A DNA stretch of 64,000 nucleotides from Nigerium sp. (GTDB lineage: Bacteria; Actinomycetota; Actinomycetes; Propionibacteriales; Propionibacteriaceae). The notes under the pieces are model-generated. The model did no database searches, was not told the origin of the DNA, and saw nothing but the letters and a program-made list of their open reading frames with translations. The stretch spans positions 3,355 to 67,354 of the forward strand of contig NZ_JBDHZL010000003.1 in assembly GCF_039811905.1 (NCBI RefSeq). The letters run 5' to 3'. Below, piece by piece: positions 3,928 to 49,477 of the stretch; positions within the stretch are counted from its first letter, which is position 1, and each line of letters starts with the position of its first letter. The position numbers and the translations under genes were made by a program.

Positions 3928-3967
3928 CCGCCGGCGTCCGGGCCGACGATGGCCCGGACGCCGGCGG
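3928..3967 (-). terminator. Intrinsic terminator after ldh; stem built from GGCGTCC/GGACGCC pair
   Basis: ccgccggcgtccgggcc-gacgat-ggcccggacgccggcgg, 17-bp perfect stem, followed by tttcgttct on minus strand. Confidence 0.8.
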
Positions 3968-4005
3968 CGTCCGTCAGGAAAAAGGGGTGGGAACCGATCG
4001 ACGGA

Positions 4006-4974
4006 TCAGAACCCGAGCGTGCTCAGCGTGTGCTTCAGCGCGGCGGCCGACGCCTTGAGCTTCACCAACTCCGTGTTGTTCAGCGGGACCTCCAGCACGC
4101 GCTCGATGCCCTTGTTCGACACGATGGAGGGTGCGGACAGGGCGACCCCCGAGACGCCGTAGTAGTCGTCGAGGACGCTGGACAGGGGCAGGATGACATC
4201 CTGATAACGCAGGATCGCCTCGGTGAGCCGGGCCCCGGTGAGGCCGATGGCGTAGTTCGTGGCGCCCTTGCCCTCGATGATCGAGTAGGCGGCGTGCACC
4301 GCGTCGTAGGCCAGCTCGTCGAGGACGTCTTCGCTGAACACTCGCTGGCCCGCCGCGTCCTTCCAATCCAGGATCGGGACGTGCCCGATCTCGGCGTTCG
4401 ACCAGGTCGGGAACTCGGAGTCGCCGTGCTCGCCCATGATCGTGGCGTGCACGTTGGCGAGGCCGACGCCGGCCTTCTGGGCGATCGCCCAGCGCAGCCG
4501 CGACGTGTCGAGCATGGTGCCGGTCGAGAAGACCTGGTTGGCGGGCAGGCCGCTCACCTTCTGGGCGACCACCGTGAGGACGTCACACGGGTTCGTGACG
4601 AGCACGTAGATCGCGTTCGGGGCCTGCTCGAGCAACTGCGGCATCAGGGACTTCATGATGTTCGCGTTGACGCCCGCCAACTCGAGGCGGGTCTGGCCGG
4701 GCTTCTGCCGGGCACCGGCGGTGATGATGACGATGGACGAATCCTTGACGACCTCGATGTCGGCGCCGCCGGTGACGTACGAGGTCGGCGTGAACTGGGT
4801 GCCGTGGGAGAGGTCAGCGACCTCGGCGTCGACCTTTTTCGCATTGATGTCGAACAGGGCGATCTCACGCGCGGAGCCTCGGATCAACGCCGCGTACGCG
4901 AGCGACGAACCGACGGAGCCGGCGCCGATGACGCTGAGCTTCAATGCATTCAGGTCTGGGAGTTGGGTGCTCAT
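4006..4974 (-). CDS. ldh: L-lactate dehydrogenase
   Basis: VIGAGSVG Rossmann motif, [45 protein letters not shown]; leaderless TAGGCT 7 nt before ATG 4974. Confidence 0.95.
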
Positions 4975-5148
4975 GCGGCCCAGCCTAGGGGCTGGACGCG
5001 GGTCGGTGCAGGGGGCCGGGAACAATCAGCGCGACCTTTCCGCGGCGCGCGTCGGCGACCCGTCGGCGACCCATCGGAGGCTGTTTCGGGCGCCTCGCCC
5101 GCGTCGCTGCCGGCTCGTCGCGCGGCGCGATGCGAAGCTGGGAGCATC

Positions 5149-5976
5149 ATGAAGCGAACCTCCCTAGCTTGCGCCAGCGCCGTGTTGCTGCTGGTGGGCG
5201 GCTGCTCCAGCACGAGCACCGCCACCGCGCCTGCGTGGACGCCGACCGAGGCCCCCACGCCGACGATCACCCCGTCTTCCCCGGCCCCCTCCGTGAGCCC
5301 CACCGAGACGGCGTCCCCCACCGCGTCCCCGTCGTCGGCGTCCGCGAGCCCGGGTGCGGATTCTGCGTCCCCGTCGCCGTCCGGGTCGGCGTCCCACTCG
5401 CCAAGCGGTTCGGCGACGCCGGCGGCGTCCGCGGCGCCCCGCGCGGCCACGGACGCCGGGTCGGTCGGCACGATGCCGTCCGGCTTCCGGCTGCCCGGCG
5501 GCCTGCGGGCCGACAACACGCTGCAGAACCTCGACCCGTGCCTCACGGTGACGGGCAAGACGGACGCCCTCGCGCAGCGCTCGGCGTCCCGGTTCAGCAG
5601 GACCGCGAACGCCCGCGCGTTCACCGGCAACGGCGGCATCGTCTTCGCCAGCGAGGACGCAGCCCGCGCCTTCATGCGCGACGCGATCGCCAAGTCGGAC
5701 GCCTGCCGCACGACCCGGACGCGGACGGGCGTGGGGCTGCTGGCGTCCCGCACGGCACCCACCAACGCGGCCTGGGACCGGTCGGTCTTCACCGCCAGCC
5801 AGGTGCCGAACGCGAGCGCCAACGGGCAGCCGTGGGGCCAGGGGACGCTCATCGTCCGCAAGGGCCAGTACGTCGCGGTCTACAACAAGGCGGGCATGAC
5901 CGACCGCGCGCCGGCCGGCCCGTCGAAGGAGGCCGTCGCGCAGGTGACCGAGATCCTGAAGGGCCTCGCTAGCTGA
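5149..5976 (+). CDS. Lipoprotein with Ser/Pro/Thr-rich linker and C-terminal globular domain, function unknown
   Basis: MKRTSLACASAVLLLVGGC lipobox, then PSASPS-rich linker. Confidence 0.75.
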   Translation: MKRTSLACASAVLLLVGGCSSTSTATAPAWTPTEAPTPTITPSSPAPSVSPTETASPTASPSSASASPGADSASPSPSGSASHSPSGSATPAASAAPRAATDAGSVGTMPSGFRLPGGLRADNTLQNLDPCLTVTGKTDALAQRSASRFSRTANARAFTGNGGIVFASEDAARAFMRDAIAKSDACRTTRTRTGVGLLASRTAPTNAAWDRSVFTASQVPNASANGQPWGQGTLIVRKGQYVAVYNKAGMTDRAPAGPSKEAVAQVTEILKGLAS

Positions 5977-46806: not shown

Positions 46807-46842
46807 GGAACAACGGGGACGCCGCCGACGGTTAAGTAGACT
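46807..46842 (+). promoter_or_regulatory. Candidate SigR/SigH-type promoter (GGAAC...GTT) plus TAGACT -10 upstream of clpC
   Basis: GGAAC at 46807, GTT at 46831, TAGACT at 46837; clpC is a known target of these sigma factors in other actinobacteria. Confidence 0.4.
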
Positions 46843-46901
46843 GAACGCGTGCCCCGCCCCGGGGCCCGCACACCAGCGTTGCTGGAATGAAGGAGAGTCC
46901 A

Positions 46902-49415
46902 TTGTTCGACCGGTTTACTGACCGAGCTCGTCGGGTCATCGTGCTGGCTCAGGACGAGGCCCGCATGCTGAACCACAACTACATCGGGACGGAACATATC
47001 CTCCTCGGGCTGATCCACGAGGGCGAGGGCGTCGCGGCCAAGGCGCTGGAGTCGCTCGGCATCTCGTTGGAGGCTGTCCGCGACCAGGTCGAAGAGATCA
47101 TCGGCCAGGGGCAGCAGGCGCCCACCGGGCATATTCCGTTCACCCCGCGCGCCAAGAAGGTGCTCGAGTTGAGCATGCGCGAGGCGCTGCAGTTGAACCA
47201 CCCCTACATCGGCACCGAGCACATTCTGCTGGGGCTGATCCGTGAGGGTGAGGGCGTCGCCGCCCAGGTGCTGATCAAGCTCGGCGCCGACCTCAACCGC
47301 GTGCGCAATCAGGTGCTGCAGTTGCTGTCCGGCTTCCAGGGTGAAGAGAAGCCGTCCACGGCGGGGGCGCCCGAGGCCCCGCAGCAGCAGGGAAATCAGA
47401 CCATTCTCGACCAGTTCGGCCGCAACCTCACGCAGGCCGCGCGCGAGAACAAGCTCGACCCGGTGATCGGGCGCGAGAAAGAGATCGAGCGCGTGATGAC
47501 CGTGTTGTCGCGCCGCACAAAGAACAACCCGGTGCTGATCGGCGAACCGGGCGTCGGCAAGTCCGCCTGCGTCGAGGGCCTCGCCCAGCAGATCGTGCGC
47601 GGTGACGTGCCCGAGACGCTGCGCGACAAGCAGATCTACACCCTCGACCTCGGCGCCCTGGTGGCCGGTTCGCGTTACCGCGGTGACTTCGAGGAGCGCC
47701 TGAAGAAGGTGCTGAAGGAGATCAAGACCCGCGGCGACGTGATCCTGTTCATCGACGAGATCCACACCCTCGTCGGGGCGGGCGCGGCCGAGGGCGCGAT
47801 CGACGCGGCGTCCATTCTGAAGCCGATGCTCGCCCGCGGCGAACTGCAGACGATCGGCGCGACGACGCTCGACGAGTACCGCAAGCACATCGAGAAGGAC
47901 GCGGCGCTGGAGCGCCGTTTCCAGCCGATTCAGGTGGCCGAGCCGAGCATCGCGCTCACCATCGACATCCTGAAGGGCCTGCGCGATCGCTACGAGGCGC
48001 ACCACCGCATCACGATCACCGACGAGGCGCTCACCGCGGCGGCCCAGTTGGCCGATCGGTACATCGCCGACAGGTTCCTGCCCGACAAGGCGATCGACCT
48101 GATCGACGAGGCCGGCGCCCGGCTGCGCATCAAGCGCATGACCGCGCCGCCGGATCTGCGGGAGTTCGACGAGAAGATCGCGGGCGTCCGGCTGGAGAAG
48201 GAGGCGGCGATCGACGCTCAGGATTTCGAGCGCGCCGCCGGTCTCCGCGACGACGAGAAGAAGCTGCTGGTCGCGCGTTCCGAGCGCGAGAACCAGTGGA
48301 AGAACGGCGATCAGGGCGCCCCGCCCGAGGTGGGCGAGGAGGAGATCGCGGAGGTGCTGTCCGGCGCGACGGGCATCCCGGTCTTCAAGCTCACGGAGGA
48401 GGAGTCGGCTCGTCTGCTCCACATGGAAGACGAGATCGGCAAGCGCTACATCGGCCAGAACGACGCCGTGAAGGCGCTGTCGCGGTCGATCCGCCGCACG
48501 CGGGCCGGCCTGAAGGATCCGAAGCGTCCGTCCGGCTCGTTCATTTTCGCCGGCCCGTCCGGTGTCGGTAAGACCGAGCTGACGAAGGCGCTGACGGAGT
48601 TCCTGTTCGGCGACGAGGATGCGCTGATCACCCTCGACATGTCCGAATACTCCGAGAAGCATACGGCTTCGCGAATGTTCGGATCTCCTCCCGGCTACGT
48701 CGGGTACGAAGAGGGCGGCCAGCTCACCGAGAAGGTGCGCCGGAAGCCGTTCTCGGTCGTGCTCTTCGACGAAATCGAGAAGGCGCACCCCGACATCTTC
48801 AATTCGCTGTTGCAGATCCTCGACGAGGGCCGTCTGACGGACGCCCAGGGTCGCGTGGTGGACTTCAAGAACACCGTGATCGTGATGACGACGAACCTGG
48901 GCACTCGGGATATCTCGAAGTCCGTCAACCTGGGCTTCAGCCAGGTGGGCGACGAGGTGAACAGCTACGAGAAGATGAAGGCGAAGGTCAGCGACGAGCT
49001 GAAGCAGCACTTCCGTCCCGAGTTCCTGAACCGCGTCGACGAGATCGTGGTCTTCCATCAGCTCACGCAGAGCGACATCGAGCGCATCGTGGATCTGATG
49101 GTCGGCGAGATCGAGGCGCGCCTGCGGGATCGCGACATGGGCATCGTGCTGACGGACGCCGCGAAGACCCTCATCGCCAAGCGCGGGTTCGATCCCGTGC
49201 TGGGTGCGCGGCCGTTGCGCCGGGCGATTCAGCGCGATATCGAGGACATCCTCGCGGAGAAGATCCTGTTCGGCGACATCCATCCCGGCGAGATCGTCGT
49301 GGTGGACGTGGCGCCCGAGGGCGCGGAGTTGCCGTTCACCTTCACCGGCCAGCCGCGCACCGAATTCCCGGACCACGCTCCGACCGAGCTCTCCGGCGGC
49401 CCCACGGAGGCCTGA
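46902..49415 (+). CDS. clpC: ATP-dependent Clp protease ATPase subunit ClpC
   Basis: TTG start after aaggag; (M)[43 protein letters not shown]. Confidence 0.98.
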
Positions 49416-49443
49416 GCTCCGGCTCGTCCCCGACCGCTCAACT

Positions 49444-49477
49444 AGGACGCCCACGGCCCATCGGCCGGGGGCGTCCT
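49444..49477 (+). terminator. Terminator after clpC; outer stem is GGACGCC/GGCGTCC pair
   Basis: aggacgccc-a-cggcc-catc-ggccg-g-gggcgtcct followed by ggcttttct. Confidence 0.78.

Follow-up and report, generated by a model that had tools for sequence, protein, structure and literature searches.

Why do the hairpins that follow several unrelated genes carry the same seven letters in their stems? The question is raised by a 64,000-nt stretch of contig NZ_JBDHZL010000003.1 of Nigerium sp. (Propionibacteriaceae), hereafter the window, which has a G+C content of 72%. Here the heptamer GGACGCC and its complement GGCGTCC recur as opposed pairs in hairpins close to gene ends. A sequence-only reading had described six such hairpins and taken them as independent support for a system like the DNA uptake sequences (DUS) and uptake signal sequences (USS) of Neisseria and Haemophilus. 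We find that the pattern is real, and that it probably reflects the co-option, as terminators, of a word that is hyperabundant throughout the window in both orientations. The rate at which the heptamer enters hairpin arms follows its abundance, so the hairpins add nothing to the case for uptake.

All six hairpins lie where they had been placed, and the gene labels ldh, dcuA, and clpC were correct. They are stable, G+C-rich stem-loops (folding free energy of the bare stem-loop -29 to -44 kcal/mol) located 20-40 nt past the stop codons of ldh, a 490-aa open reading frame (ORF), a 200-aa ORF, the BCCT transporter gene, dcuA, and clpC. We refer to the arrangement GGACGCC..GGCGTCC as order A and to its reverse as order B.

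3928..3967, minus strand: putative ldh terminator, a 17-bp perfect stem with a 6-nt loop, 39 nt past the ldh stop (4006); GGCGTCC at 3933-3939 and GGACGCC at 3956-3962 (order B), with a third copy at 3966-3972; minus-strand tail TTTCGTTCTGT.
15674..15726, plus strand: hairpin 25 nt past the stop of a 490-aa ORF of unknown function, with no T tail; 15-bp core stem at 15680-15713, heptamers at 15674-15680 and 15720-15726.
17604..17638, no strand assigned: hairpin between the convergent FMN reductase gene (plus) and 200-aa ORF (minus), order A; 16-bp stem with one mismatch and a 3-nt loop, 20 nt past the minus-strand stop; weak minus-strand tail GTCTTTCC.
25565..25603, plus strand: putative BCCT-transporter terminator, an 18-bp stem with a 3-nt loop, order A, arm GGACGCCGCCCGCCGC; 38 nt past the BCCT stop, with no T tail, overlapping the 3' end of a convergent 141-aa ORF.
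26048..26081, minus strand: putative dcuA terminator, a 15-bp perfect stem with a 4-nt loop, order A, arm GGACGCCGCCCGC; 21 nt past the stop; minus-strand tail TTTTTCTGCGT.
49444..49477, plus strand: putative clpC terminator, a 15-bp stem with one mismatch, order A; 29 nt past the stop; tail GGCTTTTCTGCG.

In five of the six, the stem pairs the two copies with each other. The site at 15674-15726 does not: in its best fold, the 5' copy pairs with GCGCGTC, and the distal GGCGTCC sits in a small adjoining stem. Stems and loops are unrelated in general, as had been said, except that the hairpins at 25565 and 26048, 480 bp apart, have the 13-nt arm GGACGCCGCCCGC in common. The two flank a single 141-aa ORF (25583-26008, minus strand) without a Pfam match. 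No Rfam family matched any of the hairpins. Close strains vary within them: L081 (99.8% identity) has lost an A from the 5' heptamer of the dcuA hairpin at 26052, where it reads GGGCGCC instead of GGGACGCC and leaves a bulged T in the stem, and in L082 the 3' copy at 15720 is GGCGGCC.

Are these hairpins terminators? The comparison of orthologous sites that had been suggested as a check proved informative at clpC. All eight relatives compared have a strong hairpin directly after the gene, with unrelated stems and with no motif pair in any of them. The clpC hairpin is thus conserved in position and free in sequence, a pattern as would be expected of terminators. Among assembled RNA contigs, which are of low depth and carry no direction, those of clpC end at 49430, and depth over the hairpin drops from ~25 to no more than 3; those of the BCCT gene stop short of the hairpin at 25565, at positions 25530 and 25543; and no contig spans a hairpin. 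These ends are consistent with termination at clpC and BCCT. T-rich tails follow the ldh, dcuA, and clpC hairpins on the correct strand; the hairpin at 17604 has a weak tail, and those at 15674 and 25565 have none. A scan for U-tract terminators, which requires a T run, found only ldh and part of dcuA among the strong sites, its remaining hits being at chance level. Tail-less, GC-rich intrinsic terminators are common in Actinobacteria and have been described for mycobacteria. The hairpins of the window resemble them, in that strong G+C-rich stems stand soon after stop codons and several lack a U tract. They differ in that one heptamer recurs in the stems; we know of no common stem word described for the tail-less type. 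On balance, the hairpins are probably ordinary intrinsic transcription terminators, some U-tailed and others of the tail-less actinobacterial type.

Does the pattern exceed chance? We took a census of inverted repeats with a loop of 3-10 nt and at most 1 mismatch. With stems of at least 9 bp, there are 19 intergenic or gene-edge hairpins, 6 of them with an exact heptamer pair, including 5 or 6 of the strongest 8. With at least 11 paired bases, the heptamer occurs in 10 of 24 hairpins in the window and in 0 of 245 in the comparison set, 54 other actinobacterial clpC loci of 68-74% G+C (1.16 Mb). Hairpins without the motif are as dense in the window (14 per 64 kb) as in that actinobacterial background (245 per 1.16 Mb). 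A null in which inter-motif segments are permuted and motif orientation is randomised, conservative because inner palindromes are retained, gives 4.3 ± 1.5 motif hairpins (maximum 8 in 200 runs) against the 10 observed, and, for stems of 14 bp or more, 0.96 against 5; under a composition-matched null the expectation is 1.4 (P=2e-6). GGACGCC is the commonest 7-mer in the hairpin arms of the window, and about 40% of 3'-end hairpins carry it (5-6 of ~13). Some 6.5% of its copies lie in arms, compared with 0.9% for 7-mers of equal G+C, a difference of about sevenfold (P=2e-6). Close pairs stand in order A 31 times against 18.7 ± 3.9 expected and in order B 23 times against 19; for intergenic pairs the ratio of A to B is 7 to 1-2 (P about 0.07, not significant). 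The excess over chance is confirmed, and it is statistically robust for a 64-kb sample.

The hairpins hold a small part of the heptamer's copies. The window contains 309 (150 on the plus and 159 on the minus strand), where dinucleotide shuffles give 50.0 ± 6.5. This amounts to one per 207 bp, at 4.8/kb in coding and 5.0/kb in intergenic sequence, and ~90% of copies are solitary and intragenic, in both orientations and all frames. GGACGCC is the strongest 7-mer outlier under three nulls (synonymous, codon-order, and empirical actinobacterial). With protein and codon usage fixed by synonymous shuffling of coding sequence, 278 copies stand against 88 (z=25); the codon-order shuffle expects 58, and the empirical background from the 1.16 Mb of other Actinobacteria 47.8 against the full 309. 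Enrichment extends to all six classes of frame and orientation, at 1.8-19x, reaching 14-19x in the two frames that require the rare codons GGA and CGT; the intergenic ratio of observed to expected copies (O/E) is 8. Heptamer copies contain 25% of GGA, 23% of CGT, and 27% of TCC codons. O/E lies between 2 and 7 in nearly every gene, and conserved genes are low in absolute density (0 copies in ldh, 1.6/kb in clpC). Strand balance holds in 8-kb bins (one bin has 19 vs 10), and cumulative GC skew climbs almost throughout, which suggests that the window is a single replichore. Spacing is near-Poisson (coefficient of variation 1.14), flanking positions carry at most 0.17 bit, and one-mismatch variants of GGACGCC show no enrichment in the window.

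These counts bear on 2 simple readings: that the whole pattern is an artefact of composition and codon usage, or that the hairpins are copies of a mobile palindrome, of the kind of repetitive extragenic palindromic (REP) elements or miniature inverted-repeat transposable elements (MITEs). GAC-GCC and GGC-GTC are indeed favoured codon pairs in high-GC genomes, and the shared 13-nt arm at 25565 and 26048 would suit such copies. The synonymous and codon-order shuffles, together with the per-frame O/E, rule out the codon-usage or dipeptide artefact: the heptamer is still the top outlier with protein and codon usage fixed, as it is against Actinobacteria of the same G+C, with 8x enrichment between genes and 14-19x in the rare-codon frames. 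As to mobile copies, only the heptamer is common to the hairpins; outside that one shared arm, their loops, flanks, and remaining stems differ, and the sequence-only reading was right to set aside a single REP element. Both versions are already contradicted by the shuffles, the actinobacterial background, and the intergenic and per-frame enrichment, and we give them hardly any credence.

Several other candidates were tried and rejected. The absence of strand bias rules out a Chi-like signal or one like the FtsK orienting polar sequences (KOPS). An extended motif is ruled out by the uninformative flanks, and regular spacing or clustering by the near-Poisson spacing. A signature of very-short-patch-type repair was sought among transition neighbours; none is specifically depleted, with only GGACACC low (7 vs 12). 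Nor is the heptamer a by-product of GGWCC avoidance, since GGACGGC, GGACGAC, GGACGTC, and GGACGCG are not enriched, and the motif also occurs in the relative L001, where GGWCC is not depleted.

GGWCC, an AvaII/SinI-type site, is itself rare in the window: 125 copies against 291 ± 17 in shuffles, or 1.95/kb against 4.07 ± 0.76, below every one of the 54 other actinobacterial loci. It is also depleted in L002, L003, and L006, which suggests that the heptamer-bearing clade avoids a restriction-modification site. GGACG is doubled while total GGAC is unchanged.

What, then, does the excess of motif hairpins mean? Among GC-rich 7-mers unrelated to the motif, the in-arm rate is 0.34% for words with fewer than 30 copies, 0.64% for 30-60, 0.93% for 60-100, and 1.95% for 100-200. 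GGACGCC, with its 309 copies and 6.5%, falls on this trend, and terminator use can therefore be read as co-option that follows from abundance. The sequence-only reading had asked that motif-containing terminators be set against the expectation from motif density; the count of 10 in 24 does exceed both nulls for the window, but the in-arm rate is just as abundance predicts. Moreover, any cause of hyperabundance in two orientations would yield motif-built terminators, so the pattern is not independent evidence for DNA uptake, and the earlier interpretation is supported only in part. A DUS-like inference is still a reasonable hypothesis, not strengthened by the terminator finding. The same trend bears on the idea that the heptamer acts directly in termination or RNA metabolism, for instance through a protein that reads GGACGCC/GGCGUCC helices, terminators then being its main site and the coding copies a by-product. 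That GGACGCC is the commonest 7-mer in arms, at 7x the composition-matched rate and with one order preferred, speaks for such a role. Yet ~90% of copies are solitary within genes, in both orientations and all frames; orthologous clpC terminators have unrelated stems; the motif is missing from about half of the strong 3'-end hairpins, and its position in the stem varies; and the in-arm rate matches the prediction from abundance. We regard a direct role as very improbable.

Co-option would probably proceed as follows. A force acting at the level of DNA sequence would hold GGACGCC at ~1 per 200 bp on both strands, overriding codon preference and altering weakly constrained amino acids; it would be common to four related Propionibacteriaceae lineages, at lower strength. 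With the word and its complement this frequent, opposed copies would often be near neighbours. Each such pair would offer a ready-made, 7-bp G+C-rich stem nucleus. Past genes, selection for termination would lengthen these nuclei to stems of 15-18 bp, while nuclei within genes would remain short; the heptamer sequence itself would not be required for termination. This is the simplest reading of the pattern, and it follows an argument from expediency made for other bacteria: an abundant word and its complement give cheap hairpins for terminators (Kingsford et al. 2007, PMC1852404).

How widespread is the word, and how does it evolve? It is the top 7-mer outlier in a Propioniciclava metagenome-assembled genome (MAG), Micropruina sonneratiae, a Micropruina MAG, and a Propionibacteriaceae MAG, at 2.0-3.5 copies/kb. 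No enrichment was seen in Acidipropionibacterium, Microlunatus, or some 70 other Actinobacteria examined; other high-GC Actinobacteria have 0.8 copies/kb. We found nothing on the GGACGCC heptamer in the literature, and it appears to be undescribed. In codon alignments, heptamer sites of the window are mostly lineage-specific (60 of 72 vs relative L001). Sites of the relatives are kept in the window in 28.8% of cases, against 13.6% for matched control words (P=7e-6). At motif sites, the tripeptide matches the majority of relatives in 24% of cases vs 44% elsewhere (P=3.5e-4). Lineage-specific sites, retention above control, and placement at variable protein positions together argue that a DNA-level force creates and keeps copies at some cost to codons and proteins. 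Among six near-identical contigs (99.0-99.8%), five heptamer sites are polymorphic, four of them as single-strain losses, too few for a comparison of gain and loss.

Other lineages have words of their own. TGATCA and other GATC-containing 7-mers are strongly enriched in L005 (Microlunatus parietis) and in the MAGs L004 and L051, with 24 copies of TGATCAA vs 1.3 expected in L005. Here too a motif is hyperabundant in particular lineages, this time a palindromic one.

Several points weigh against co-option from abundance. The abundance trend is partly circular, as both arms of a hairpin add to the word's count. The sample is small, with ~13 candidate terminators in 64 kb, and the RNA support comes from low-depth assembled contigs rather than from single-nucleotide mapping of 3' ends. 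The intergenic preference for order A is not predicted by pure chance seeding. The four clade relatives, at 2-3.5 copies/kb, show no motif hairpins, but they have only 11 hairpins in total, and the absence is compatible with a quadratic dependence on density. Finally, the drivers proposed for the abundance (uptake or transfer bias, a HIP1-like maintained motif, biased repair) are candidates only.

The remaining motif pairs and near-matches of the window are as follows.

23197..23223, no strand assigned: weak motif-pair hairpin (order A, folding free energy -19 kcal/mol) in the divergent PFOR/BCCT region, not at a 3' end, probably a chance-seeded pair.
57299..57321, plus strand: proC 3'-end hairpin, a near-match with a 9-bp stem of the 6-mer GCGTCC/GGACGC, 21 nt past the stop.
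6915..6946, 5423-5458, 31306-31337, and 34262-34297, no strand assigned: intragenic motif-pair hairpins with 11-13 bp stems within coding sequence.

The number of intragenic hairpins is about that expected from chance juxtaposition of an abundant word. Near-matches had been noted after hpt, lsr2, and proC; the last is a true stem, if of a 6-mer, and in the other two the copies do not pair. The hpt site has one exact copy and a GGTGTCC, and its best fold is built instead on CCGGAC/GTCCGG; the lsr2 copies, 60 nt apart, stand on either side of a different hairpin.

Genes were called with a codon-usage model, which agrees with public gene calls where these are present (6.9-27.4 kb), and Pfam confirms ldh, dcuA, the BCCT transporter, PFOR, tilS-hpt-ftsH, lsr2-clpC, disA, and radA. 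The clpC product is 92-93% identical to homologues of the Propioniciclava MAG, Micropruina sonneratiae, and the Micropruina MAG; for other proteins of the window, identity is only 45-83%. Contigs from activated-sludge and wastewater metagenomes encode proteins identical to those of the window. By these matches, the window comes from a sludge bacterium of the Propionibacteriaceae that stands close to Micropruina and Propioniciclava. About 13.6 kb were recovered past the window edges, 7.3 kb of it an alternative arrangement in strain L086, with heptamer density unchanged. In L086, at 5902-13148, a GDPD gene, a two-component system, and an ABC transporter replace the sequence downstream of the FMN-reductase gene; the replacement has 4.25 heptamers/kb, the same as the window. 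No competence genes and no mobile elements were found within the 64-kb window. In lsr2 (46332-46694), third-position G+C (GC3) is down to 0.70, against ~0.95 in the neighbouring genes. GC3 is 0.83-0.89 in a PIN-domain (VapC-like) gene and the small partner gene upstream of it (49498-50125), which hold 0 heptamers vs ~3 expected; this PIN-type toxin-antitoxin pair may be a recent acquisition and is the one candidate for such DNA in the window. An ARAGORN call of tRNA-Ile(GAT) at 14997-15072 lies inside the 490-aa ORF (14177-15649); Rfam gives no tRNA there at its gathering threshold, public gene calls retain the ORF, and the call is probably a false positive.

Some strong structures of the window lack the motif. 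A hairpin at 32924-32964, 4 nt past the methylpurine-DNA glycosylase gene, opens a 651-bp stretch (32921-33571) with no called gene and no Rfam match. Two perfect palindromes, at sites 30194-30227 and 16841-16868, are TGACGTTCTCCACC..GGTGGAGAACGTCA in a divergent intergenic region and GACTATCGTTGA..TCAACGATAGTC between the SBF transporter and FMN reductase genes; they look like operators and not like terminators.

What drives the abundance? We favour biased transmission or maintenance, that is, molecular drive through uptake or transfer, or DNA-level selection of the kind proposed for the cyanobacterial word HIP1; simple mutational bias ranks below these. If GGACGCC were a true uptake signal, receptor-biased uptake and recombination would spread the word, and terminators would reuse it. 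This account is compatible with co-option and would supply its driver. DUS and USS occur at ~1 per kb and are over-represented hundreds-fold (about 100-1000x). Like them, the heptamer is a short, non-palindromic word, hyperabundant on both strands without strand bias, in genic and intergenic DNA. It is likewise the commonest word in terminator stems, with a preferred order of close pairs, sites at variable protein positions, recruitment of rare codons, retention above control, the same expediency logic, and presence in related genera at differing densities. The parallel in terminators that had been drawn is real and close: inverted pairs of the Neisseria DUS (GCCGTCTGAA) and the Pasteurellaceae USS (AAGTGCGGT) serve as intrinsic terminators (Kingsford et al. 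2007, PMC1852404), the motif being present in ~40% of 3'-end hairpins here vs 17-29% in Pasteurellaceae (PMC1852404). There is even a precedent for the route of discovery, as a 7-mer USS was proposed for H. ducreyi from terminator content (PMC1852404). Every sequence-level hallmark of DUS/USS that we tested is present, with the exception of motif length and specificity.

The differences are nonetheless substantial. The heptamer has 7 nt with uninformative flanks, where DUS and USS have 9-12 nt and A/T-rich flanks that supply A and T tails. Its density of ~5 copies/kb is 5x that of known uptake sequences, its enrichment is ~6x instead of 100-1000x, and 0.8 copies/kb in other high-GC Actinobacteria would make for poor discrimination of self from foreign DNA. 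The word shows no bias towards intergenic DNA, its one-mismatch variants lack enrichment, and the association with terminators is explained by abundance alone. Neither competence nor a receptor is known in the host, a high-GC Gram-positive, and our literature searches turned up neither an actinobacterial uptake sequence nor competence data for the clade. We consider an uptake signal unlikely, if reasonable as a hypothesis. It is likewise unlikely that GGACGCC is a self-recognition signal for horizontal DNA transfer in this Propionibacteriaceae clade, whether as an uptake sequence for natural transformation or as a word for an FtsK/TraB-type conjugative translocase; molecular drive would then have spread it, and terminators would be built from it as they are in Neisseria.

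The other candidate is a motif kept by a DNA-level role or by a sequence-specific repair bias, with no link to uptake. Candidate roles are nucleoid organisation, a site for an abundant DNA-binding protein, or a site for an orphan methyltransferase. HIP1 (GCGATCGC) reaches more than 1 per gene in cyanobacteria, in coding and non-coding DNA, and is lineage-specific (Elhai 2015, PMC4390886; Xu et al. 2018, PMC5861425). The heptamer shares this extreme density, one per 207 bp falling in the HIP1 range, as well as the spread over coding and non-coding DNA and the restriction to a lineage. Its sites are also conserved above control, the argument used for selection on HIP1 (PMC5861425), and the clade's avoidance of GGWCC hints at active sequence-specific DNA enzymes. 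HIP1, however, is palindromic, with methyltransferase sites (GATC, CGATCG) inside it, and its over-representation is 15-300x (PMC4390886; PMC5861425), whereas the heptamer is asymmetric, enriched ~6x, and has no known methylation core or link. Kb-scale spacing is near-Poisson, and a periodicity of 10-90 kb is beyond the reach of 64 kb. The depletion of neighbour words expected of very-short-patch-type repair is missing (GGACACC alone is low), and there is no candidate protein. A HIP1-like origin is thus a possibility that we hold tentatively.

Chi and the FtsK/SpoIIIE orienting sequences (KOPS and the SpoIIIE recognition sequences, SRS) have a strong orientation bias relative to replication and occur 10-20 times more sparsely. 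The heptamer is like them in being an over-represented, asymmetric word of the 5-8-mer class that would act at the DNA level. It is unlike them in that plus and minus counts are equal in almost every 8-kb bin, despite a near-monotonic rise in cumulative GC skew.

Beside the terminator pattern, the heptamer itself is the more interesting object: it is lineage-specific, and the force behind it would be strong enough to recruit rare codons and change proteins. Should that force be biased uptake or transfer, uptake-sequence biology would extend to Actinobacteria, with the first such genome-wide signal there; if not, the heptamer would pose a second puzzle of the HIP1 type. In practical terms, its density offers a simple marker for binning and host assignment of the clade in wastewater metagenomes. 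To our knowledge, terminators built from a genome's commonest word have been described only in two Gram-negative families, where that word is the uptake signal. The same architecture in a high-GC Gram-positive suggests that it is a general outcome of any hyperabundant, two-orientation word, and that motif-built terminators alone should not serve to infer uptake sequences.

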